Below are positions 2,951 through 23,722 of a stretch of 64,000 nucleotides of DNA, piece after piece. Every line of letters begins with the position of its first letter. Position 1 is the first letter of the stretch. The stretch comes from an uncultured Chloroflexia bacterium (GTDB lineage Bacteria; Chloroflexota; Dehalococcoidia; DSTF01; JALHUB01). The stretch lies in the NCBI GenBank assembly GCA_963763495.1, contig CAVXOY010000017.1:51204-115203 (forward strand), in the 5' to 3' direction. A program made the translations under genes and the position numbers. The notes under the pieces are model-generated. The model was not told where the DNA came from. It did no database searches and was given only the letters and a program-made list of their open reading frames with translations.

Positions 2951-4267
2951 ATGAGCTTGCCGGCCACGCGACCAACCGTCACAATCGCCGACACGACCGG
3001 CGGCCTGCCCGCCGCGTTCGAGGCTATCTTCGCGCCCTACGGCGGCGTCGCTAACGTCATCCCTGCCGGCAGCAAGGTTTATGTCAAGCCCAACGGCGTC
3101 TACTTCTCCCCGGAAACGCACACAGACCCAATGGTAGTCGATGCCCTGTTCGCCTGGCTGGGCGACCACGGCTACCGGCGGCTGGCCCTGATGGAGAACG
3201 CCACCCACGGCGTCGCCACCCGCCTTGTCTTCGCGGCGATCGGCTATGCCGACGTCGCCCGCCGCCACGGCGCCGAGGCGGTCTACCTGGACGAGGGAGA
3301 CACGGCTTCCTACACGCTGGAGGACGAGGAAACCCCGATACGCATCTCCCGCCGGTTCTACGAGACGTTCGTCGACCCGGCGCGGTCGCCCGGCAACTTC
3401 TACCTGACCCTGCCCAAGCTGAAGACCCACTCCATGACGACGGTGACGCTGGGCGTGAAGAACCAGCAGGCGTTCCCGATCCACGAAGACCGCATGCACT
3501 TTCACACCCACGACACGCTGCACGTCCGTCTCGCCCGCCTCTACCGGATGGCGCAGCCCGACTTCTGCATCATCGAGGGGATAACGGCGATCGCCCACGG
3601 GAACGTGCCGCCGCGGACCCTGCTGAACGAGTGCAGCACTCGCCTAGACATCCTCATCGGCGGCCGCGATACGGTGGCGGTGGATACGGTCGGCGCGAAG
3701 GTGATGGGATACGGCATCGAGGAGGTCGAGCACCTGCGCCTGGTCGCGGAATGGGGACTGGGCGAGGGCGATCTCAGCCACATCGAGGTCATCGGCGACC
3801 TCAGCCGCTTCCAGACGCGCTTTCCCTACGCCCTCCTGCGGCGCTTCCACCCCGACGTGCGCATCGTCGAGGGGCGGGAGCGGGCCTGCGTCGAGGGCTG
3901 CAAGGGGAACACCGAATGCGTCCTGGAGATACTGACCAACGACTACGCCGGTCAGGGCGGCTTCAGCATCGTCTTCGGCAAGGGTCTTGAGGAGAGCGAC
4001 CTGGATGATTTGCAGGGCGACATCCTGGTCGTCGGGCCGTGCGCTATCGGCGAGCAGGGGGCGGAGCTGCGGCGGCGCTATCCCAACCGCCGGATCATCG
4101 AGGTGAACGCCCACAACGACCTGCGCGGCATAACCGCCGGGCTGACCACGCTGATGAAGGTCAGGCCGGTGAGCATGGTGCCTCTGAACCCGCTGCGCTC
4201 GCTGTGGTTATTCGGGCAGGCGAAGCTACACGGGCTCAACTCGCGCGTGCCGCCGCTGTTGGGGTGA
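2951..4267 (+). CDS. DUF362-family protein
   Basis: Intact 438-aa ORF. VYVKPNGV...TDP.VVDAL and LKTHSMTTVTLGVKNQ motifs are characteristic of DUF362 proteins. Confidence 0.7.
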   Translation: MSLPATRPTVTIADTTGGLPAAFEAIFAPYGGVANVIPAGSKVYVKPNGVYFSPETHTDPMVVDALFAWLGDHGYRRLALMENATHGVATRLVFAAIGYADVARRHGAEAVYLDEGDTASYTLEDEETPIRISRRFYETFVDPARSPGNFYLTLPKLKTHSMTTVTLGVKNQQAFPIHEDRMHFHTHDTLHVRLARLYRMAQPDFCIIEGITAIAHGNVPPRTLLNECSTRLDILIGGRDTVAVDTVGAKVMGYGIEEVEHLRLVAEWGLGEGDLSHIEVIGDLSRFQTRFPYALLRRFHPDVRIVEGRERACVEGCKGNTECVLEILTNDYAGQGGFSIVFGKGLEESDLDDLQGDILVVGPCAIGEQGAELRRRYPNRRIIEVNAHNDLRGITAGLTTLMKVRPVSMVPLNPLRSLWLFGQAKLHGLNSRVPPLLG

Positions 4268-12012: not shown

Positions 12013-12823
12013 ATGTCCCTCGCGGAGTGGGCGATGGAACTGCTTGAGATTGCGGGCCTGAGCTTCCTCGGCGTGCTGGCGTACATGACCGGCGTCTGGC
12101 TGCTGAGCCTTGCCCGCAGGGACGCGAGCGTCGTTGACGTCTTCTGGGGGCTCGGCTTCGCGCTGCTGGCGGCAGCCTATCTCATCGCCACAGACGGATT
12201 CGGCGGCCGCAAGATTCTGATAACCGCCCTCGTCGCCGTATGGGGTCTGCGGCTCTCCATCTACATTCTGCTGCGCAATCGGGGCAAGGGAGAGGACTAC
12301 CGCTACCGGAGATGGCGAGAGCAGGCCGGGGCGAGCTTCTGGTGGATCAGCCTCTTCCGCGTCTTCCTGCTCCAAGGGCTGCTGCTGTGGATCATATCCA
12401 TGCCCATACTAGCGGCCCAGTTCAACAAAGACCCCGGCCACTTCACGGTCTTCGACTTGGCGGGGACGCTGATTTGGGGCGTGGGCTTCTTCTTCGAAGC
12501 GGTGGGAGACTGGCAGCTTGCCCGCTTCAAAGCCGACCCCGCCAACAAGGGGCAGGTGATGCGGAGCGGCCTGTGGGCCTTTACGCGGCACCCCAACTAC
12601 TTCGGCGATGCCACCGTTTGGTGGGGCTACTTCGTGATTGCCGCGGGGACGTTGTGGGGGTTGTGGACGCTCTTCAGCCCCGTCCTGATGACGGTGCTTC
12701 TGTTGAGGGTATCGGGGGTCGCGCTGCTGGAGAAGACCCAGGTCCGGACAAAACCTCGAGTACCGGGACTACATCGAGAGCACGAGCGCGTTCCTACCCC
12801 GACCGCCGCGCAAGCAGCGCTGA
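12013..12823 (+). CDS. DUF1295 / steroid 5-alpha-reductase-like membrane protein
   Basis: Polytopic membrane ORF with ...RHPNYFGD... typical of DUF1295/ICMT-like proteins. A frameshift near 12735 gives the end ...EYRDYIESTSAFLPRPPRKQR stopping at TGA 12821-12823. Confidence 0.65.
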
Positions 12824-12968
12824 AGCTCTCCTCAACTCCAGTCAGGAACCCTTGAGGGTCGAGGGGCTTGCCATTCTCAAGGAAGAGGCCGCCGGAGACT
12901 TATACTCAGAGGGCGTGGTACGATTTAGATAGGACTCAGCCAGCGTAGTGAAATGAAGGGGTGGCTCA

Positions 12969-13811
12969 ATGGCGTTCCCCAGAACAACGATCGGCAACCT
13001 TTCCGTCTCCCGCATGATCATCGGCACCAACTGGGTGCTCGGCTTCTCCCACACCAGCGCCGCCAAGGACAAGCAGATACGAGAGTCGACGACGCCTCAA
13101 CACGTCGCCGACATCCTGGAGGTCTTCCTGGCGGAGGGCATCGATACCGTCATCGGCCTCCTCCAGCATCCCGTTCTTCGCGACGGCATCCGGGAGGCAG
13201 AGCAGCGCACGGGCAAGAAGATGATCGTCATCTCCACGCCGGCAATCGACGTGCGCGACGGCCCGGAGGCGCTCGCCCAGGCGGAGCAGACGTTCGACAA
13301 GGAAGCGGAGCTGGGCACGACCATCTGCATGCCCCACCAGGTCAGCACCGACCGTATGGTCGATATCCGAGAGCGGCGCATCAAGAACATGGACACCTAC
13401 TGCCGGATGATCCGCGAGCGGGGGATGGTGCCCGGGCTGTCGACGCACATGCCGGAGACTATTGTATTCGCCGACGAGACGGACCTGGACGTGGAGACCT
13501 ACCTTTCTATCTACAACGCCGCCGGCTTCCTCATGCACCTGGAGGTAGACTGGACACACCGCATCATCTGGAACGCGAAGCACCCCGTGATCACGATCAA
13601 GCCGCTGGCCGCGGGGCGACTCCTACCCCTGGTGGGACTCGCCTTCAACTGGGCGACGATTCGCGACATCGATATGGTGGCGGTGGGAACGTCGACGCCC
13701 GACGAGGCGCGGGAGATCATCGAGATCTCGCACTCCCTCCTCGAAGGAAGAGCCGAGCGCATCGAGCTTCAGAAGACGCGAAGCAAAGGCACGATAACAG
13801 ACAAGCGATAG
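12969..13811 (+). CDS. conserved hypothetical protein
   Basis: Intact 280-aa ORF with coding-like composition. No family recognised. It lies between a membrane protein and a Gfo/Idh/MocA oxidoreductase. Confidence 0.55.
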   Translation: MAFPRTTIGNLSVSRMIIGTNWVLGFSHTSAAKDKQIRESTTPQHVADILEVFLAEGIDTVIGLLQHPVLRDGIREAEQRTGKKMIVISTPAIDVRDGPEALAQAEQTFDKEAELGTTICMPHQVSTDRMVDIRERRIKNMDTYCRMIRERGMVPGLSTHMPETIVFADETDLDVETYLSIYNAAGFLMHLEVDWTHRIIWNAKHPVITIKPLAAGRLLPLVGLAFNWATIRDIDMVAVGTSTPDEAREIIEISHSLLEGRAERIELQKTRSKGTITDKR

Positions 13812-13841
13812 GAACCACGAAGGATCGGAGCCAACTGAGCG

Positions 13842-14935
13842 ATGACCAACAAAGCTTCCAACAGCGAGCCAGTTCGAGTGGGAATCATAGGCTGCGGCGA
13901 GATCGCCGGGCCATACGTACAGACGCTGCAGCCCTACTCGCAAGTTGAGCTCGCCGGCGTAGCCAGCTCGCACTCAGGAAAAGTGCACCCTCTTTGCCGG
14001 AAAACACGGCTTGCGCGCCTACGAGTCGATCTCCGATCTGCTGGCAGACAAGAGCATCGACCTCGTCCTCGACCTCACCGGCCAGGATGCGCACGCGGAT
14101 GTCGTGGCGAAGTGCCTGGACGCCGGCAAGCACGTGTACTGTGAAAAACCGCTTGCCCTCAACTATCGCGAGGCCGAGCAGTTGGTCGACTCGGGCAAAG
14201 CAAGCGGGATTGCTCCTGGGATCGGCGCCTTCGACCTTCATGGGGGAAGCCCAGCAGACAGCCGCAAAGGTGATCCGCGAGGGACGCCTGGGCACGGTGC
14301 GCCTAGTCTACGCGGAGGTCAACCACTGGCGAATCGAAGCCTGGCATCCATCTCCGCAGCTCTTCTATGCCTGCGGGCCTCTCTTTGACATGGGGCCTTA
14401 CCCGCTCGTCCTGCTTACGAGCATCTTCGGGCCCGCCCGGCGCGTCCAAGCCTGGGGACGCGTTCTCATGCCGGAGCGGCAGACCAAAGACGGGACGCCG
14501 TTCCGCCTGGAGAAACCCGATTTCGTGGTCGCCCTGGTCGAGTTCCGCAGCGGCCCGGTGGCGCGGCTGACGATCAACTACTACACCGACTGGAAGAAGA
14601 AGGAAGGGGAGTTGGTGGAGTTCCACGGCGACCGCGGCTCACTGTATCTGGCGCACGTATCCATCTTCAGCGCCGGCGTGGAGTACGCGGAATTCGGCCA
14701 GTCCTACGAGGCAGTGCCCCTTGTCAAGGAGCCTTTCCGGGGCATTGAATGGGCACGCGGCGTCGTGGACATGGCGGAAGCGCTGCGAGAGGGCCGGCCG
14801 CACCGGGCGACGGGCGAGCAGGCGGCGCACATCATCGAGATCATGGAGGGCACCGCCAAGGCGATGGAGACTGAGCGACCGGTCGATATCACGTCGGACT
14901 TCACGCTCCCAGCGCCGATGGAGTGGGCCACCTAG
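13842..14935 (+). CDS. Gfo/Idh/MocA-family NAD(P)-dependent oxidoreductase
   Basis: N-terminus VRVGIIGCGEIAGPYVQTL... is a Rossmann fold. Then YCEKPLALNYREAEQLVD, and a C-terminal domain through ORF 13994..14935. Frame breaks near 13970 and 14230. Confidence 0.75.
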
Positions 14936-14953
14936 CCCCACCCGCGTCAGGCC

Positions 14954-16751
14954 TTACCCTCCCTGCTCGCTGAAACGGCGGGCCAACCCCTGATAGACCT
15001 CACGCACAACGTCGAAGGCCGCCTTGCGGGTGCGGTGGTCGTCGGCCATCAGCCCCTTCCGATTGTAGCCGCGCTGGTACTTGTTCTGTCGCAGGGGCGT
15101 CCGGAAGTCGTACAGGACCCAGGGAGACGTGCCGACCACGGACGGGGACTGGAGAATCCCGGCGAACTGGCGGCGGTAGAATTCGCTCTGAAACTCCTCG
15201 GTGCGGATCTCGTCCGCGGCGCCGTGGAGGCCGGCAACGCAGTCCGCCCCGAACTCGGAGATGATGATAGGCTTGCCGGATGCCGCCAGACTGGCGAGCA
15301 ACTCCGGCACCTGCTCCACTTTCCCCCAGTACCAGCCCAGGTACTCGTTCACCGCTGCCACGTCCACCTGGGACAACGAGGGGATCTGTGGCCGACGGCA
15401 GTAGGGCGGCGGAGACCAGGCGGCTCGGGTCCATCTCGCGGGCAGTCGCCACCAACTCCGACAGGAAGGCCAGGCGTTCGTCGGTCGGCGGCGTCTCGTT
15501 GGCCACCGACCATATGATGACGCTGGCCCGGTTCCGGTCACGGCTGATCAGCTCGCGCAACTGGTTGCGGGCGCTCGCCAGCACCGCCGCGTTCGCGAAG
15601 TCGATGTGCCAGTAGACGGGTATCTCCTCCCAGAGCAGGAGCCCCATCTTGTCGGCGAGGCGGGCGGCGTTCTCGTGGTGGGGATAGTGGGCCAGCCGCA
15701 GGAAGTTGCAGCCCAGGTCGCGGGCCGCCTCCAGCATCCCGCGCGTATCGTCCTCCGTTGCGGCGCGGCCGTGGCCCGGGAACTCCTCGTGGGCGCAGAT
15801 GCCGCGGAGGAAGACCGGCCGCCCGTTGAGGAGCAGCTTGTCGCCTTCGACCCGCACCTCGCGAAAGCCGACGCTATCCTCCAGACGGTCGCCGCTCTCC
15901 AGCGCCACCTCGACCTCATAGAGATGCGGCGCCTCCGGCGACCAGAGCTTCGGCTCGGCCCCGAACTCCAGCGATGCAGCGCCGTTCTCATCCACGGTGG
16001 CCCTTTCCTTGATTCCGAGAGCAGGCACGCTGACGATCACCTGCTCGCCGGCGGAAGCCGATGTCTCGACGTCCAGCCGCAAACGACGGAGACCATCGCC
16101 GGGCAGGAGGCGCCAGAACGTCCGCTTGACGTGAGAGGGCGGGACCTCGACCAGGCTCACGGAGCGGGTGATGCCGCCGTAGTTGAACCAGTCGCACCAG
16201 AGGGCAGGCAGGCGGTCAGCCTCACGGCGGTTATCGACGACTATCGCCAGGACGTTCTGCGGCTGCAGATAGGGCGTAACGTCGACGCAGAAGGGGGTGA
16301 AGCCGCCCTCATGCCTGCCCAGGAGGTTGCCGTTGAGCCAGAGGGTCGACTCGTAGTTGGCAGCGCCGACGCGGAGGAAGTAGCAAGGGCCGGAGGGCGG
16401 CCCGGCGAACTCCTTGACGTAGAGCGCACAGCCCTCGTAGTGCATCAGCTCCGGTCGCTCCTCATTCCAGCAGCCCGGCACCCTCGCCGTCTGCCAGGCG
16501 CCGGCGGGGAAATCGGCGTGAACCCGGCGCAGGGCCTCGTCCTCCGGCAGACCCAGGAGACCGAAGTAGCGGGCATCGAAGGCGGCGCGCCGTCTGTTGG
16601 CATCGTAGGGGTCGATGTGGAACTTCCAGAGGCCGTCGAGGCTGATCTGAGGCCTGCCGCCGACGTCGATGAGCGAGTCCGCCGTCAGCAGCGGCTCCGC
16701 AAACGCCTTCTTGTAGTCAGGATCGAACGGCGAGAGGGTCTGGGGACTCAT
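14954..16751 (-). CDS. GH2 glycoside hydrolase (beta-glucuronidase / beta-galactosidase-like)
   Basis: The ~600-aa N-terminal sugar-binding and Ig domains plus TIM barrel lie in ORF 15000..16898 (MSPQTLSPFD... start at 16751 with an AAGGAG RBS). They carry WSVANE and C-terminal ...IIISEFGADC...YDFRTP. One frameshift near 15400-15540 joins to ORF 14954..15541. Confidence 0.8.
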
Positions 16752-16970
16752 GACGACTCCTTTTCGACGCTGGGACAAGGGCGAGCTGTGATTTTCGTGC
16801 CGCCTTGAGTATAGCGGGTCGACGCCGCTTGGTCTTCCTCTCGTCCGAACGAGCGAACCTTCCGGCTGGAAGATCACATGCTGCGCCAACGGTGCCACTG
16901 ATTAGTCTGAGCCGAGAAACTGGAAGGCATATACCGGTAACGTGTTTCGCGTGCGTGAGTCTATCCAGCG

Positions 16971-17012
16971 ACGGTGTCAATCATTCTTACTATTCGAAGA
17001 GGAATGATATTG
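16971..17012. promoter_or_regulatory. imperfect inverted repeat in AT-rich divergent intergenic region (candidate operator)
   Basis: TGTCAATCATTC-N15-GAATGATATTGACA sits in the GC-poor spacer between the GH2 gene (minus strand) and the LuxR-PAS array (plus strand). Confidence 0.3.
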
Positions 17013-17226
17013 ACAGTTACATTCAGGAGTGTATAGTCACCATATTGCTGGCCTGACTCTGGAATCTTAGGCCGGGACACTCCGCGCAGCCTTGGTCGGC
17101 CGCGGCAGTGGCTTGTTCGGTTTCCCGGCCGAGGAGACACTTCCCGGGTCAGGTACTGGACGCTTCGGCATCGGAAGCCGCGTGAACTGATGGCTCGGCT
17201 CTTTGCTAGTGTCAGAGAAACATGAA

Positions 17227-17791
17227 ATGGACACGGAGTGGATTTGGGACAGACTCGATCCCATCGAGAAGCGCATAGCTGAGCTTCTTCTGGAAGGGAA
17301 TAGCAACAAGGTCATCGCCACCGAGGTCTCCCTCTCCCGATCCCGTGTGCAGGAGCGCGTCAAAAGGATCACAATTAAGGCGGGGGCAGCCAGCACCAGG
17401 GAAGCCCTCGTGCTCCTGGCGCAGGAAAGGGAGACATCGTCTCTTCTCAGCATCCTCGACCAAGCGACCGATGCCGTGGCAATCTTGCAGGATCGGGCTC
17501 TGCAAGTTCGCCAACAAGGCTCTGGCAAAGCTGCTGGGGTACACCGCCGAGGAGATGGAGGGTATACCCTTCGTGGAGTTCGTGGCTCCCGGGGCCAGGG
17601 ATGAACAGGTAACGCGATATGAACAGCGGCTGAAAGGTGAGCCGTTTCCCGGCCGCTACACGACCCGCGCCCTCTGCAAAACAGGAGAGTCAAAGGAGTT
17701 AGAGGTGACCAGTGGCGGCATGGTCCGCTTCAAGGGCAGGCCCGCCATGATGGCGATCATTGTTGACAGCCAACGAGGAGGCTCGCAGTGA
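17227..17791 (+). CDS. LuxR-type HTH + PAS one-component regulator, paralog 1
   Basis: MDTEWIWDRLDPIEKRIAELLLEGNSNKVIATEVSLSRSRVQ is a LuxR HTH. A C-terminal PAS fold lies in ORF 17345..17791 (frameshift near 17500). Confidence 0.65.
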
Positions 17792-17863
17792 GAAGTGGAG
17801 ACTCCCCGTCTCACCGGCGGCGCGGGCAGCAGTCAAGGAAATGCTACACGGCAGGAGCGCACC

Positions 17864-18484
17864 ATGGAAAGCGGCTGGAAGTGGGATAGGCTTGACCCTT
17901 TCGAGCGGCGCGTAGCTGAGCTGCTGCTAGAAGGGAAGAGCAACGCGGCAATCTGCGCGGAGGTCTTCCACTCCAGAGCACGCGTGCAGGATTGCATCAA
18001 GAAGATCCTGATCAAGACGGAAACGGACAGCACCAGGGGCGCTATCGTTCTGCTGGCTGAGGAAAGGGAGAGCTTGTCTCTGCTTCACGTGCTGGAGCAA
18101 GCGACCGATGGCGTGGCGATCGTCCAGGATCGAGTCCTTAAGTTCGCCAACAAGGCTCTGGCAGAGGCGTGCGGGTATGACGCCGACGAGATGGTGGGGA
18201 TGCCCTTAGCAGAGCTGCTAGCTCCAGGAGTCAGGGAGAGAGCGCTTGGCCACCACGAACTAAGGCTGAAAGGTGAACCGTTTCCTCGCAGCTACACGAC
18301 CAGAGTCCTGTGCAAGGGAGGGCAAGAGAAGGAGCTAATGGTAGCCAACGCAGGGCTTATCCGGTACAGGGGCAGGCCTGCCATCATGACGGTTGCGTTC
18401 GACCCGAAAAAGGCGGGAGAAGAAGCGGGAAATCCCCCTCCCACCGGCGGCGCGGGCAGCAGTCAAGGAAATGCCACGCGATAG
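17864..18484 (+). CDS. LuxR-type HTH + PAS one-component regulator, paralog 2
   Basis: MESGWKWDRLDPFERRVAELLLEGKSNAAICAEVFHSRARVQ...QATDGVAIVQDRVLKF...RYRGRPAIM. Roughly 70% identical to paralog 3. Confidence 0.7.
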   Translation: MESGWKWDRLDPFERRVAELLLEGKSNAAICAEVFHSRARVQDCIKKILIKTETDSTRGAIVLLAEERESLSLLHVLEQATDGVAIVQDRVLKFANKALAEACGYDADEMVGMPLAELLAPGVRERALGHHELRLKGEPFPRSYTTRVLCKGGQEKELMVANAGLIRYRGRPAIMTVAFDPKKAGEEAGNPPPTGGAGSSQGNATR

Positions 18485-18500
18485 GAGCGCAAAATGGAAA
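18433..18500 (+). repeat. direct repeat of the duplication junction (second copy; first copy at 17806-17870)
   Basis: caccggcggcgcgggcagcagtcaaggaaatgc(t/c)acgc...atggaaagcggctgg occurs both upstream of paralog 2 and at the paralog2/paralog3 junction. This marks the tandem duplication unit. Confidence 0.7.
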
Positions 18501-19042
18501 GCGGCTGGGGATGGGATAGGCTTGACCCCTTAGAGCGGCGAGTGGCTGAACTGCTGCTAGAAGGGAAGAGCAACGCGGCAATCTGTGCAGAGGTCTTCCA
18601 TTCCAGAGCACACGTGCAGGACTGCATCAAGAGGATCCTGATCAAGACGAAAACAAACAGCACTAGGAGCGCCATCGTTCTGCTGGCTGAGGAAAGGGAG
18701 ACCCTGTCTCTGCTTCACGTGCTGGAGCAAGCGACCGATGGCGTGGCGATCGTTCAGGATCGAGTCCTAAAGTTCGTCAACAAGGCTTTTGCAGAGGGAT
18801 GCGGGTATGACGTCAACGAGATGGTGGGTATGCCCATGGTGGAACTCTTAGCTCCCGAATCGAGGGACATTGTGGCCAAGCAGTATGAACTGAGGATGCA
18901 GAATGAACCACTTCCTCGCAGATATGAGGCCAGCATCCTGCGCAAGGGAGGACAGAAGAGGGACGCTACGATAACCAGCGCCGGGCTGGTGCGGTACAGG
19001 GGCCGGCCCGCGATCATGGCGGTTGTGGTAGCGCGAGAATGA
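18494..19042 (+). CDS. LuxR-type HTH + PAS one-component regulator, paralog 3
   Basis: MESGWGWDRLDPLERRVAELLLEGKSNAAICAEVFHSRAHVQ... has the same architecture. Intact 182-aa ORF. Confidence 0.7.
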   Translation: MESGWGWDRLDPLERRVAELLLEGKSNAAICAEVFHSRAHVQDCIKRILIKTKTNSTRSAIVLLAEERETLSLLHVLEQATDGVAIVQDRVLKFVNKAFAEGCGYDVNEMVGMPMVELLAPESRDIVAKQYELRMQNEPLPRRYEASILRKGGQKRDATITSAGLVRYRGRPAIMAVVVARE

Positions 19043-19698
19043 GCGGGAAGAGGCGGAGACCGGGCACCCCGCAGACCGCTCAGAGTGCGACTGCTTACGT
19101 CCAACATTTGTCTGAGACATTTGTCTCGTCTTTCGACTTGAAACGCCCTGGGACCCCAAAAGACGATTGACCACCTCGGCAGCGACCCCTACGCTCAAGT
19201 CGGGTCTAGCGCCTCCGCTGGGAACAACGGAATAGCGCTCCCAGAGGAGGCAGCGTGGCAGGGATGCCCCTTGCCTCCTACCACAGTTGGGCTACGGCAC
19301 GGTGGCGGCTCGCAGCCAGCATGAGAACATGCAAAGTCAGACCCTGGTCCAGCGGCACCGTGCCGTAGTTTCCGCTGCGTTGGCGCGACGGCCTCGTACA
19401 AATCACCGCTTCCTTTTTTGCCTCGCGGGGGAGACTAGACAAGAAGCCAGACGGCCCCCAAACACGTGTCCAACCCCAGCAGATCATGACGACTGCCTAG
19501 GTGCCATACATCCGTGGACACACGGATTCTGACATCGGTCGACAAAGAGCAAGTTCAGCCCCCTCTTGCTGGAGGGAGAGGATAGGCTTATCTCCGCGCC
19601 TGCTCGGCGCTGGTGCCAAGAAGCCCCGCCACGGGAAACCCCGCCGCAGTCCTGATGTCCGGACAACCGTCCGGTTAGCTTGATATAGGAGGCTCAAG

Positions 19699-22600
19699 AT
19701 GAAACGGATACGATGGCTGGCAGCGTTTGCACTAGCAGCTTTGGCGGCGCTATTCCTGTTTGGCTCGCCGCATGCCCCTGTGAGCGCACAGGAAATCGAG
19801 CATCGACGATGCCCACAACACGCTGACGGTTAACCGACGCCGATCAGGGCGATTCCGTGATCGTACGTGGCACCTTGACGAATGTCAGTGCCAACAACTA
19901 TCCCAGCGCGCTTACGGCTGTCTTGTTCAGAGAGGTCGGAGGCGATATCGCAGCGGAGCGATATGGACCTCTCCTGGTGGGCGGGCGCCCCCGGCTGGCA
20001 AGCGGCCGGGCCGGCTTTCGCCACCAACTACCCCGGCTATCAGATGGAGATGGAAGTCGGCGGCGCCGGCTTCCCATTGCCGCCCGGATTATGCCGGAGC
20101 GGGGACGTGGATCAAGGCTGTCGCGAACAGGGACTTCGACACAGTCGAGATCAAGGTGATCACCTACGTCGATGCGACCGGCAACCAGCGGTACGACCTG
20201 AACGAGGCGATCATCTCCGAACTGGCCGGGGTCATCGACCAGGACATCCAGATCGATCTGCTTGCGGCTTCAGCCTCGACGCGGTCTCCGTAGATGATGA
20301 TTGGGCAGACTGCGACGTCGGCGATCCGGCTTCCGACGTCCCCGTCGAAGAGGTCGCTTCCGGCAAGTTCTGCCAGATCAACGCTTTCGCCACGATCCAG
20401 GAGGCGATAGACGCGGTTACGCCGGGCGGCACGGTGGACGTCTACCCGGGCACCTATGACCAGGACGAGGCGAACGATCGCGATCCAGATCACAGGGGGA
20501 GCAGGCAGCAACGACTTCAACATCTTCGTCGGCAAGCCGCTGACTATCGAGGGAGTCGACGCCTCGGGCGACCCGATCACGGACTACGACGACGTTGCCG
20601 CCTACGTCATCCCAAAGCGCGATACAGGCGGCGGTCACACCGATACCATCTTCGTCCAGGCGGATGATGTCACCATCACCGGCCTCGACGTTACCGGCTG
20701 GACCGGCGCCAACTACGAGAACCAGAAGACGCTGGAGTCGATCGGCGACAACCTGACCGTGAAGTACAACCAGTTGCACGGCGTGGACGGCGCCGCCGCG
20801 CTCTACATGTACGATGCACGCTTCGACCCGGACACCGACACCTCGCACGTCCAGTCATACCTAATCGAGGCCAACCTACTCGATGGCGGTGGACTCTGGG
20901 GTCAACGGCATCCGCATCTCCAGTGGCCCCGGATGGAGCGGGCCCGTCAGCGGCCGTGTCATCGCTGACAACACGTTCGACAACGACTGCGACGGCATCG
21001 AGTTCGTCGGGCCCGGCGGCTGATCCCTGGGACGTCTACCCCGTCGGCGCCGCCACGATCACGGGCAACAGCTTCAGCAACTCCGACCGCCGGCACGTTG
21101 TCGCCTGGGGTTCGTATGAGGGAGGCCCGGGCTACGGTGACATCGACTGGCAGGGCATCGTCGAGAACAACACCTTCGACAAGGCGGCGATCACCTGGAC
21201 GCCGGGCGGCGACGCCCAGCCGTGGACCCTCGACCCCTTCGTCGACGTCCGCGGCATCTACAGCGCAATCCAGAGGTACGCGATCAACCGCGCCGCGCAG
21301 GACGGCGACACGATACAGGTGCTGCCCGGGCCTCTACCCGGAGACGCTCAACATCGAGGGCCGCAGTGACCTCAGCATCGTGGGCGACGACCGCGACACG
21401 GTAATCGTGAAGCCCACGTCGACCCTCTCGTGGGCCATCCCCGGATACCCGCAGTACGACTCACGCCAGGCAGCGGTGCGCGTCGTCAGTTCGACCGGCA
21501 TCGACCTCTCGAACATGACCTTCGACTTCGACACCGTGAAGGGCAACAACGTCGCCGGCCTCTTCTACTGGGATAGCACCGGCGTCATCAGCGGCAACGC
21601 GCTCAAGAACATGACGGCGTCTGACGCTGCCGGCTTCTACGGAGAGCTGACAAGCTACGTGCGCGCTCCCAGCTACAGCGACGGCGCCCGCGCCGAGGTG
21701 GAGTTCAGCGGCAACGTCTTCACCGAGACGGGCCGGTTGGGAATCGTGACGCACGACTTCGTGCACGCCACGATCCAGGGCAACACCTTCACCAAGACGA
21801 TCAACGACTTCGGCTACGCCATGGAGATAGGCTCGCGCTCGACGGCGACGATAACCGGCAACACTATCTCCGGCTACGACACGCCTGCCGCCTCCGATGG
21901 CAGCTCGGCGGCCGGCATCTACATCGAGAACTCGTTCACCGGCGGGCTGCCGCACATCGTCAAGCCGGTCACGGTCAGCGACAACGAGGTGACCGGCAAC
22001 CAGTACGGCGTGTGGATCGGCAACGAGTACACGGGCTACGCCGGCGACATCGACGTCAACGTCACCCTCCAAGGGAACACGATAAGCGACAACACGGACG
22101 GCGGCGTGTACATCGTCGACGAGGGCCGGTCCGCCGGATCGTCAGTCACGGTCAACGCCAGCGGGAACGACGTGACGAACAACGGCGACGTCGGCTACTG
22201 GTTCAACGCCTACGGCGATGGCGAACTGCACGCCAACGTCAGCGGGGAGACGATCAGCGGCCAGGGCGACGGTGTGCGGATTGACAACACGTCAGGGGGC
22301 AACAACCTCTTTGACCTGCACATCGGGCCCGACAACGAGATCTTCGATAACGACAACGGCATCGCGGGCTTCTCGGTGTCCGGCATCGTTATCAGCGGAA
22401 ACAGTATCCACAACAACGTCAACCGCTCCGGAAGCGCGGGCGTAGGCATCATGTTCTGGGGTGATAGCGACAACGAGCAGATCCTCAACAACGTGGTGTA
22501 CGACAACGACCGGCAGGGCATCTTCTTGGGACACGACACGGAGATCAGCACCGGCAGCACGATCTCCGGCAACACAGTCTACAACAACGGCCGGAACACA

Positions 22601-23722
22601 TACCCGAACCCGCCCGATGCCTCTGCCTACGGCATCCAGCTCTGGAATGCGGACGACAACGTCATCGCCAACAACGAAGTCTACGGCCACGACGATTGGT
22701 TCCCCTACCCACCTCCGTCGACCTTCGACTTCGCCCAGGGGATCTACCTGTTCGACTCCAACGACAACATCCTTACCGGCAACAACCTGCACGACAACAA
22801 CTACGGCGTCGGGGTTTGGGGCCCGGGCAGGGGAGATGGCAGCAACCTCATCAACAACAACACCATTGCAGGCAACACCGGGTACGGCGTGAGGAGCTTC
22901 GATAGTGCCTTCGAGGTCGACGCCACGAACAACTGGTGGGGGCACGTAACGGGTCCGTACCATGCCGACCAAGAACCCGGCAGGGCTGGGCGACGATGTG
23001 AGCGACTACGTGCTCTTCGACCCCTGGCTCACGCACGGGGACCAGGATATGGACGGTGTCCCTGACGCCGTTGACAACTGTCCCGCAGTCTACAACCCCG
23101 ACCAGCTCAACAGCGACGGCGGGCGCCGGCCCAACGGGTCGCAGATACCCGGCGAGTGGGCCAGCAACCCCGCCCAGGACAAGCTGGGAGACGCCTGCGA
23201 CCCCGACAACGACAACGACGCGTTGCCGGACACCAGCGAGAGCGAGTCGTCCTGTCCTTTCCGCCTGAATGGGGACAGCGACGGCGACAGGGTGGTGGAC
23301 GGGTGCGAGGTGGCGAACGGCTACGACCCCTGCTCCGCCGCCAGCAAGCCGCCGTGGGAAGGCGGCTCCGACAGCGACGGGGACGGCTTCGCTGATTGGG
23401 TAGAGCGGAGCGGCTACAACACCTGCGCCTTCGCCGGCGACACAAGGCCCGGCTATACCACCTGCGCCAACCCCACCGACAGCGACAGCGATGGCTGCGC
23501 GGACTGGATAGAGATCGTCGACGTCAACGGCGACAGGCAGTCGCGAACATCCTGGATGTGCAGTGGGTAGCGAAGAGGGCGTTCAACGCTATCCCACCCT
23601 CTGACTCTGACGTCGTATTGGACATGGACAAGAACGGTCGCGTCAACATTCTGGACGCGATGCTGGCGGCGAAGAACTCGACGCTGGTGAGGCCGCACTC
23701 CCCTTGCGCGTCAGAGGGATAG
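19699..23722 (+). CDS. giant secreted parallel beta-helix (PbH1) protein with TSP type-3 repeats and C-terminal dockerin
   Basis: ATG at 19699 with a TAGGAGG RBS, and signal peptide MKRIRWLAAFALAALAALFLFGSPHAPVSAQE. ORFs 19857.., 19882.., 20456.., 20923.. and 21098..23065 (655 aa) carry about 10 PbH1 turns of the GN.(I/V)..N form. ORF 22962..23570 carries TSP3 Ca-binding repeats (DQDMDGVPDAVDNCPAVYNPDQ, DSDGDRVVDGC, DSDGDGFADW, DSDSDGCADW). The C-terminus is a dockerin (DVNGDRQ-VNILDVQWVAKRAF ... DMDKNGRVNILDAMLAAK). About 8 frame breaks join the pieces. Confidence 0.75.

Follow-up and report, generated by a model that had tools for sequence, protein, structure and literature searches.

Most proteins that combine a PAS domain with a LuxR-type helix-turn-helix (HTH) domain, in fact the vast majority, carry the PAS domain first (bioRxiv 10.64898/2026.03.15.711900). 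Regulators with the reverse order, HTH first and PAS second, were characterized only in 2026, and the available portion of the preprint describes a single, heme-binding example, the one-component switch FG214 of Fimbriimonas ginsengisoli (PDB 10jx) (bioRxiv 10.64898/2026.03.15.711900). Here we describe a tandem array of three HTH-PAS genes in a 64,000-nucleotide (nt) stretch of DNA from an uncultured Chloroflexia bacterium (GTDB class Dehalococcoidia; contig CAVXOY010000017.1, positions 51,204 to 115,203), referred to below as the window; all coordinates are positions within it. We regard the array as a new variant, of a non-heme type, of this recently described architecture for one-component regulators. 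Together with its surroundings, it is best explained, with a probability of roughly 0.55, as three paralogous transcription factors of the one-component type that are encoded in an operon-like array and have a downstream target.

In FG214, heme b is held by His156 (proximal) and His175 (distal), and a redox or ligand trigger frees the HTH domain and helix alpha-4 from the PAS sheet, converting the monomer into a DNA-binding dimer (bioRxiv 10.64898/2026.03.15.711900). This monomer-to-dimer effector release is experimentally supported; in the available portion of the preprint, no native target of FG214 is known (bioRxiv 10.64898/2026.03.15.711900). In EL222 of Erythrobacter litoralis, as summarized in the same source, the PAS beta-sheet sequesters the alpha-4 helix of the HTH domain (bioRxiv 10.64898/2026.03.15.711900).

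Like EL222, the proteins of the array are small and combine a PAS domain with an HTH domain. EL222 differs in that its PAS domain is N-terminal and is a flavin LOV sensor; the LOV-type NCRFLQ cysteine motif was found in none of the window proteins. The PimM/PteF-type regulators of Streptomyces are PAS-LuxR proteins, with the same domain types in the opposite order. The order of EL222 and PimM, with an N-terminal PAS domain and a C-terminal HTH domain, was not seen here, as the HTH domain comes first in all three copies.

Three tandem genes encode HTH-first PAS proteins

A preliminary description of this DNA, made from the letters alone, had reported three consecutive small regulators at this site. 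Its observations were partly confirmed, and its interpretation was partly supported. A repeat search resolved three head-to-tail units, starting at 17227, 17864, and 18494, with a spacing of 637/636 and then 630 nt; each unit encodes one HTH domain, a long linker helix (alpha-4), and one PAS domain. The genes and the segment between the first two are as follows.

17227 to 17791, plus strand: copy a (copy 1), HTH-PAS gene, 187 amino acids (aa) after removal of one base at 17499
17864 to 18484, plus strand: copy b (copy 2), HTH-PAS gene, 206 aa, with a C-terminal tail that is read-through of the junction
18494 to 19042, plus strand: copy d (copy 3), HTH-PAS gene, 182 aa
17792 to 17863, plus strand: a-b junction, a remnant of the family 3' flank fused to a leader, with the ribosome-binding site (RBS) AGGAG at 17853 to 17857

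The aligned units are 70% (copies 1 and 2), 63% (1 and 3), and 76% (2 and 3) identical as DNA, and the proteins are 57%, 54%, and 73 to 75% identical, respectively; the earlier estimate of 60 to 70% was roughly right. A tblastn search of the window found no family member beyond copies 1 to 3. Orthologs of each copy occur in related assemblies. Those of copy a, in two relatives called L010 and L012 here, are intact at 187 aa and 95% and 94% identical to it, respectively. Those of copy b (P0006, 90% identical, and P0008) share its length of 206 aa, and those of copy d (P0001, P0002, and the d copies of L010 and L012) are 92% identical. The extra 24 residues of copy b come from reading through the junction segment. 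An 18-aa peptide, GGAGSSQGNATRQER, had been presented as a retained segment between the genes; it stands as a translation of the junction but belongs to a protein only in copy b, whose C-terminal tail it forms. The RBS of copy d (AGGAG, 18483 to 18487) overlaps the stop codon of copy b.

The PAS assignment is solid. TIGR00229 scored 46.8, 43.9, and 51.1 bits in the three copies (cutoff, 22.9), and Pfam PAS or PAS_8 scored above cutoff in all three, with the HTH at residues ~10 to 66 and the PAS domain at ~75 to 180. An AlphaFold2 model of copy d, built from a 32-sequence family alignment (predicted local distance difference test score [pLDDT], 90.6; predicted template modeling score [pTM], 0.80), has PAS sheet strands at residues 83 to 88, 91 to 95, 143 to 149, 155 to 168, and 171 to 180. 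A Foldseek search of this model against the PDB returned many PAS structures at probability 1.0, with FixL and DosP among the matches. TIGR00229, Pfam, AlphaFold, and Foldseek thus agree on the single C-terminal PAS domain that had been proposed.

The LuxR-type HTH that had been proposed is accepted at the family level, while single sequences fall under the Pfam cutoff. A profile of 32 family members matches GerE (1fse) with an E value of 7.4e-6 over residues 10 to 66, as well as the DNA-binding domains of DosR, NarL, VraR, and VpsT, and PF00196 is precomputed on many homologs. In the copy d model, four N-terminal helices are predicted at residues 12 to 22, 27 to 34, 38 to 52, and 57 to 78, consistent with a tetrahelical GerE-type fold. 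The likeness to GerE/NarL/DosR domains lies in this profile alignment over residues 10 to 66 and in the predicted four-helix fold. The window family differs in having no receiver domain, in having Cys in place of Ala and of His, and in an extra N-terminal W-x-W-D motif. No Response_reg match was found for the window copies in Pfam or NCBIfam, and NarL, MadR, and other regulators were matched only over their C-terminal DNA-binding domains, which sets the copies apart from NarL/FixJ response regulators. That the domain order is unusual, as had been remarked, agrees with the preprint's statement, in its available portion, that PAS-first proteins are the vast majority (bioRxiv 10.64898/2026.03.15.711900).

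FG214 is the closest described protein. Its PAS domain (10jx) is the best PDB sequence match of the family profile (E = 6.5e-8) and a top Foldseek match as well; the two share the order HTH, alpha-4, PAS and a similar size (214 aa versus 182 to 206 aa here). The differences are considerable, however. PAS identity is only ~22%, and the heme-site residues His156, His175, His159, and Met172 of FG214 are not conserved in the window family. Nor does the FG214 half-site, GGGGCGGGG, bear any relation to the ACAyWTGTCTC motif described below. Tandem paralogs go unmentioned in the available portion of the preprint. The host of FG214 belongs to the Armatimonadota, whereas the named members of the window family are Dehalococcoidia.

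The heme-ligand positions were compared in HMMER and MAFFT alignments. The equivalents of position 156 are Val, Ala, and Gln in copies d, b, and a, respectively, and the equivalent of position 175 is Pro (Arg or Ser in the HMMER alignment). Across 33 family sequences, His occupied position 156 in one and position 175 in none, and no conserved His was found in the HTH-PAS family. With both axial His ligands absent from the copies and the family, bis-His heme binding of the FG214 type was rejected.

The family itself is compact. A word-indexed search found 104 relatives, nearly all with lengths of 180 to 206 aa and identities of at least 52%; where organism names are attached, they are all "Dehalococcoidia bacterium" metagenome-assembled genomes, and the named homologs are ~60% identical. 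An exhaustive profile search of representatives was dominated by multi-PAS proteins and showed only that the full-length family collapses to a few clusters at 50% identity. The sole result of scanning genome contigs with one protein was a delta-proteobacterial PAS locus (L002) outside the family. Sequence variation among 32 members is concentrated in the PAS half, with the HTH half nearly invariant.

The array is old and is remodeled by recombination

Three related assemblies inform the history of the array: L001, an independent NCBI assembly; L010, a Joint Genome Institute (JGI) contig; and L012, a 36.7-kb contig that is 90.6% identical to 12492 to 19386. L001 is 95% identical to 17593 to 19180 without internal gaps and has the same copy-1 end, copies b and d, and both junctions. 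The window carries a-b-d. L010 carries four copies, a-b-c-d, with 95% identity between its a and window copy 1, 90% between its b and copy 2, and 92% between its d and copy 3; L012 carries a-c-d. More distant loci have one, two, or three copies. Our census confirms that relatives differ in array size, with between one and four copies each.

The preliminary description had taken the similarity of the junctions as a sign of recent expansion. Judged by sequence divergence, the array is old, because synonymous divergence (dS) between paralogs is 0.52 to 0.94 in the PAS halves, and because the same paralogs recur as a-b-d, a-b-c-d, and a-c-d in independent assemblies, with orthologous copies in relatives diverged by ~8 to 10%. 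A recent expansion is accordingly not supported.

The retained junction is real as a DNA repeat, but it is merely the 5' end of a longer homogenized repeat, which consists of the following two tracts.

17791 to 18170, plus strand: homogenized tract, first copy (junction and HTH half of b), partner of 18421 to 18800
18421 to 18800, plus strand: homogenized tract, second copy (junction and HTH half of d), partner of 17791 to 18170

In the repeat search, 17791 to 18090 and 18421 to 18720 were 89% identical. Sliding identity stays at or above 0.86 (~0.9) for ~300 to 380 nt, through the junction, the HTH, and the start of the PAS domain, and then falls to 0.5 to 0.7 in the PAS half. The dS between b and d changes likewise, from 0.27 in codons 1 to 100 to 0.62 in codons 101 to 178. 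Between orthologs, dS in the HTH and PAS halves is 0.24 and 0.018 for b and 0.26 and 0.19 for d. PAS halves are 85 to 98% identical within an orthology type and 53 to 76% between types, forming four sharply separate groups; HTH halves of b and d are 91% identical within a genome and 85 to 95% between genomes, and the two types are mixed.

The junctions have a mosaic structure as well. One piece is the family 3' flank, TCACCGGCGGCG.GGGCAGCA, which also lies 3' of the stop codon in single-copy homologs; the other is the RBS-adjacent leader, AGGAGCGC..ATGG, which matches the family leader. In the junction-borne copies, the inter-copy segment places the AGGAG RBS 6 nt before each ATG. The b-d junction of the window consists of the 5' part of the L010 b-c junction and the 3' part of the L010 c-d junction, with the switch near the AGGAG RBS, and the a-c junction of L012 is of the a-b type upstream and of the c type downstream. 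On these alignments, it is largely shown that the junction similarity stems from recombination or gene conversion of a tract comprising the junction and the HTH half, and that copies have come and gone through crossovers within this tract. Most simply, the ancestor had four copies, and segments of ~630 nt were then deleted independently as the homogenized tract recombined unequally; copy gain by the reverse unequal event is possible. Mosaic identity, chimeric junctions, and strain-variable copy number are features of gene-converted tandem arrays in general. Here, in contrast, the homogenized part is the DNA-binding module with its translation-initiation leader, and the variable part is the sensor pocket.

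Three relatives of 301 to 307 aa (P0003, P0004, and P0005) are HTH-PAS-PAS fusions in which the second PAS domain begins at the linker motif (E)ERETL.LL, as if adjacent copies had recombined with the loss of one HTH. These fusions indicate that recombination acts at the linker too.

The HTH halves are under purifying selection, with nonsynonymous to synonymous differences (Nd/Sd) of ~5/15. The PAS half of copy b (18164 to 18397, compared with L010 1493 to 1726) shows 11 nonsynonymous changes and 1 synonymous change, clustered in the Falpha-Gbeta segment, the part of heme-PAS proteins that makes up the ligand pocket. In the same comparison, the HTH half of b has an Nd/Sd of 6.5/14.5 (Fisher P value for the contrast, ~0.001), although gene conversion may inflate the contrast through the synonymous count of the HTH half. 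At the protein level, the sensor pocket of type b changes fast, which fits sensor diversification and may reflect diversifying selection.

A conserved module lies downstream of the array

Downstream of copy d, four features recur in related loci in whole or in part.

19104 to 19132, plus strand: candidate operator, a conserved motif with ACATTTGTCT twice, including the palindrome GAGACATTTGTCTC at 19114 to 19127
19167 to 19195, plus strand: P2, a predicted promoter-like site, TTGACC-17-TACGCT, with an invariant -35 and a weak -10
19203 to 19385, plus strand: conserved, probably structured leader RNA with hairpin H2, whose apical sequence GGCAGGGAUGCC lies at 19257 to 19268
19699 to 23570, plus strand: gene for a large secreted beta-helix/NosD/TSP3-repeat protein, broken into several frames

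The motif, ACAyWTGTCTCrTyyT, lies 27 to 90 nt 3' of family-gene stop codons in ~25 loci, whatever gene comes next, and follows the last family gene or, where copies are widely spaced, each gene. The window holds one, in the form ACATTTGTCT-GAG-ACATTTGTCTC at 19104 to 19127. Its distance to the TTGAC of P2 is 50 nt at 17 sites, 51 nt at 2, and 38 to 39 nt (one helical turn less) at 5, and TTGAC is invariant in 10 aligned loci. P2 falls below the threshold of a consensus-promoter scan, as would be expected for an activator-dependent promoter, and the motif would be centered at about -82 (-71 in the short form) from the predicted P2 start, both typical positions for an upstream activator. This geometry makes the motif a candidate activator site for the HTH-PAS proteins. 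Variants of the recognition helix were considered as a correlate of motif loss; the L007/L029 clade fits, L021 and L024 do not, and the association is at most suggestive.

The strongest alternative for this region is that the ACAyWTGTCTC element is the intrinsic terminator of the regulator gene and that P2 and the leader have nothing to do with the regulators. The constant placement of the element 27 to 90 nt after the stop codon speaks for a terminator, as does the 5-bp hairpin followed by a U-rich stretch that many loci can form. This hairpin is weak, though (-8 to -1.7 kcal/mol, the latter in L008), and none can form in L019, where the right-hand sequence is nonetheless kept; what is conserved is primary sequence, without covariation. 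A terminator would also have no need of the constant distance to the -35 box, which is 50 nt or shorter by one helical turn. We consider this alternative unlikely and prefer to regard the element as a candidate activator site.

The leader at 19203 to 19385 is GC rich, has a minimum free energy of -90 kcal/mol (z = -3.15), and is conserved across clades. Its structure was judged on per-sequence folds, as RNAalifold on MAFFT alignments mis-registers divergent clades. In hairpin H2 (~19244 to 19280), the apical GGCARGGAUGCC is invariant, and the stem sequence varies between clades with pairing kept. Rfam 15 gave no match at E ≤ 1 in 16700 to 20200 and no gathering-score match for the leader in the whole window or for its equivalents in L003, L006, L008, and L025. 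From its folding and conservation, the leader may be an undescribed cis-regulatory RNA. It runs into a beta-helix gene in the window and in L003/4/5, L006, L012, L014, L017, L020, L025, and L034; it precedes a multi-PAS protein in L008/9 and the next HTH-PAS copy in L011 and L013.

The beta-helix gene of the window has a signal-peptide-like start preceded by the RBS AGGAGG, matches Pfam Beta_helix, NosD, and TSP_3 (a dockerin protein), and is 75% identical to a 1,653-aa protein of L003, with a frame change near 23025. The beta-helix neighbor recurs in at least 10 loci. Just before its RBS lie two direct CCCCGCC repeats, 15 nt apart (19624 to 19630 and 19639 to 19645), and a CCGGAC/GTCCGG hairpin (19659 to 19674). 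Both are kept in L003, L014, L017, and L020, and a single TCCCCGCC is present in L006, L025, and L034. CCCCGCC resembles the complement of the G-rich FG214 half-site given above, which may be coincidence.

Conserved cysteines and the nature of the sensed signal

In 32 members, Cys31 (helix 2) is invariant and Cys44 (recognition helix) is nearly so; they stand where GerE-type domains have the canonical Ala and His. Copy a has Ala and Arg at positions 31 and 44 instead. A third Cys, in the "LCKGG" segment of the PAS domain, is common in the family and is replaced by Arg in copy d. These cysteines raise the possibility of thiol or metal chemistry.

A second alternative would make the proteins heme or thiol redox sensors like FG214 or PedR, acting through Cys31, Cys44, and the PAS Cys or through heme. 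It draws on the conservation of the two HTH cysteines, on the heme-PAS domain of FG214 as the best PDB match with FixL and DosP also among the Foldseek matches, and on weak matches to PedR, a thiol-regulated LuxR-type regulator. Yet the PedR matches reach only ~14 bits against a cutoff of 120, the family has neither the FG214 ligands nor any other conserved His, copy a lacks both HTH cysteines, and copy d lacks the PAS cysteine. Redox sensing of this kind is improbable, and a non-heme signal sensed by the PAS domain is preferred.

Copy a is disrupted by a likely assembly indel

The preliminary description had given the first gene as 17227 to 17791. The unit is present; its 565 nt, however, are not a multiple of 3, and its frame is split by one base.

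17499, plus strand: extra base causing a +1 frameshift in copy a, placed by alignment to L010 and L012

This base (GGGC[T]CTGC) divides copy a into open reading frames (ORFs) 17203 to 17604 and 17345 to 17791. Comparison of 12492 to 19386 with L012 revealed 13 indels, 5 of them in coding sequence. Each of the latter five (12758, 13967, 14189, 15375, and 17499) adds a single base to the window and disrupts a reading frame that L012 retains whole: the gene at ~12013 to 12932 (12758), a GFO/IDH/MocA oxidoreductase (two indels), a GH2 glycoside hydrolase (15375), and copy a (17499). Pfam matches to the GH2 TIM-barrel model and to the GFO/IDH/MocA domains are likewise divided between frames, and the downstream beta-helix gene (19699 to 23570) is split across at least five frames in the window assembly. 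Uncorrected insertions seem to occur in the assembly at a rate of about one per kb, which calls for caution in any ORF-based reading of the window. That every coding indel relative to the 91%-identical L012 adds one base to the window makes an assembly indel the most likely source of the frameshift in copy a, and copy a is probably intact in the organism. Five or more independent pseudogenization events would account for the pattern far less well than uncorrected insertion errors.

The contrary explanation, that copy a is a true pseudogene in a decaying array with only b and d functional, has in its favor that the frameshift stands in the given sequence, outside any homopolymer, and that copy a lacks both conserved HTH cysteines and a canonical AGGAG RBS. 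Its orthologs in L010 and L012 are nevertheless intact and under purifying selection (Nd/Sd, 2/6 and 7/10), and four neighboring one-base coding insertions break three upstream genes, a pattern of systematic assembly error to which the fragmented beta-helix gene downstream adds. We think it improbable that copy a is a pseudogene.

The upstream region contains a predicted promoter and an unconserved inverted repeat

The features upstream of the array are as follows.

17010 to 17037, plus strand: P1, predicted sigma-70-like promoter, TTGACA-16-TATAGT, 11 of 12 positions matched
17045 to 17226, plus strand: array 5' leader of ~180 nt, with length and sequence blocks common to more distant loci
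16975 to 17015, no strand assigned: imperfect inverted repeat (TGTCAATCATTC ... GAATGATATTGACA), the 42-bp repeat of the preliminary description
14954 to 16752, minus strand: divergent GH2 glycoside hydrolase gene, frameshifted at 15375 in the window

P1 is the only consensus-like site in 16600 to 19400, where 0.4 would be expected. L012 has the same hexamers and spacing, and L010 retains TTGACA. P1 would be the promoter of the array on this sequence evidence. A structured RNA in the P1 leader (17045 to 17226) was considered and set aside as weak (z = -1.78; RNAalifold consensus, -15 kcal/mol). The promoter region had been called AT rich; its GC content is indeed below that of the flanks (~0.65 to 0.68) but is still 0.54.

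An ungapped repeat finder did not report the inverted repeat. When gaps were allowed, the best-scoring repeat of the region, which is a different one, was equaled or surpassed in 42 of 200 dinucleotide shuffles. In L012 the repeat has 5 substitutions over ~42 nt, all uncompensated and no fewer than in the flanks, and in L010 its left arm is deleted. The repeat was rejected as an operator on these grounds, and the 42-bp element reported at 16971 to 17012 is best regarded as chance level and unconserved.

The Glyco_hydro_2_C model is split over two frames in the window GH2 gene, which is intact at 640 aa in L012. GH2 adjoins the array only in the closest relatives, L010 and L012; the upstream neighbors in more distant loci are a tRNA gene and DUF6391, or a carboxyl-transferase gene. 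A functional link of the array to glycoside hydrolases, which had been proposed from this adjacency, is not supported, whereas the downstream module is family-wide.

A model along the lines of the preliminary description, a recent redundant triplication that is autoregulated through the inverted repeat in the promoter region shared with GH2 and that controls carbohydrate use, is already contradicted by the age of the array and by the findings on the repeat. The junction repeat on which it drew is real, GH2 and the GFO/IDH/MocA oxidoreductase do lie directly upstream, and the outer end of the right arm of the inverted repeat is the -35 box of P1. Set against these are the PAS dS of 0.5 to 0.9 with orthologous a, b, and d copies in relatives, a repeat that is shuffle level and half deleted in L010, and distant loci that keep the downstream module without a GH2 neighbor. 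This model is very improbable. That the array or its copy number is an assembly artifact (a collapsed or expanded repeat or a strain chimera) has almost no chance of being right, for although the window holds indel errors, the relatives are metagenome contigs, and the copies share ~90% identical tracts, the same order and junctions stand at 95% identity and without internal gaps in the independent L001, the chimeric junctions are coherent in each configuration, and the copies differ by 24 to 37% overall and so cannot derive from a collapsed or duplicated read pile.

Other elements near family genes in related loci were noted. A palindrome, CTGTCA-N8-TGACAG, precedes every family gene in one clade (L003 9972 to 9991, L013 5972 to 5991 and 7155 to 7174, and 8 other loci), and its right arm overlaps the AGGAG RBS. 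It could be an RBS-masking RNA hairpin or a lux-box-like operator. It has no match in the window at up to 2 mismatches and is degenerate in the junctions and upstream of copy a. A tRNA gene lies ~350 to 550 nt upstream of the first HTH-PAS gene in L003 (9387 to 9459), L006 (9580 to 9652), and L025 (4866 to 4938), and L003 has a cyclic di-AMP (c-di-AMP) riboswitch further upstream (3476 to 3614). Rfam found no tRNA anywhere in the 64-kb window.

A working model for the array and its downstream target

The favored reading has parts of unequal strength: the evolution part is largely shown, the mechanism part follows FG214 and EL222 by analogy, and the target part is drawn from conserved synteny and geometry. 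Effector release as in FG214 is the best available mechanistic analogy. In this model, a, b, and d would be transcribed jointly from P1. At rest, each protein would be monomeric, with its alpha-4 helix and HTH domain held by the PAS beta-sheet. A signal sensed by the PAS domain, other than through bis-His heme, would free alpha-4 and the HTH, and the freed protein would dimerize and bind DNA; heterodimers would be possible, given the ~93% identity of b and d through the HTH and alpha-4. Dimers would bind the ACAyWTGTCTC site at 19104 to 19132, centered ~82 nt upstream of the predicted P2 start, and activate P2, which would drive the long structured leader and the gene for the giant secreted beta-helix protein. 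The leader RNA may add a second layer of control. As the PAS halves are old and divergent and the HTH half is near-identical, the array would present several different sensors on one shared DNA-reading head.

Several points weigh against this reading. Single-sequence Pfam GerE (PF00196) scores are 21.7, 14.6, and 18.9 bits, below the cutoff of 23.5. Without His156 and His175, the FG214 analogy covers architecture only. Binding of the motif by the HTH-PAS proteins is something that we infer, and the motif is absent downstream of L021 and L024, which have the standard recognition helix, and of the L007/L029 clade. No motif copy was found upstream of the arrays' own promoters, which gives no support for autoregulation. 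The frameshift at 17499, not being in a homopolymer, may be real. Finally, the relatives are short-read metagenome contigs, in which ~90% identical repeats could in principle be mis-joined.

A more specific version of the model is offered tentatively, as we doubt that all of its parts hold jointly. It describes a lineage-specific cassette in which HTH-PAS homodimers and heterodimers would converge on one ACAyWTGTCTC site, 50 nt from the -35 box, and switch on a promoter with a ~180-nt structured RNA checkpoint (riboswitch-like or protein-binding), with the PAS domains sensing a non-heme signal. As part of this joint reading, and with the same doubt, the RNA would precede either the beta-helix gene or the next regulator copy.

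Discussion

The leads that we find most interesting adjoin the coordinates of the preliminary description: a motif and promoter of fixed geometry, and an unannotated structured leader. The downstream motif, promoter, and leader provide a concrete candidate target for HTH-PAS proteins, whereas FG214 has none known in the available portion of the preprint. The leader, if truly a regulatory RNA, would be a structured RNA class not yet described. Small HTH-PAS switches are also candidate biosensor scaffolds.

For the family itself, the array is a clean natural case of modular evolution, with a uniform DNA-binding module and leader and diverging sensors, in which whole copies come and go between close strains. 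The existence of a separate compact family without the heme ligands indicates that the HTH-PAS architecture serves at least one signal other than that of FG214.

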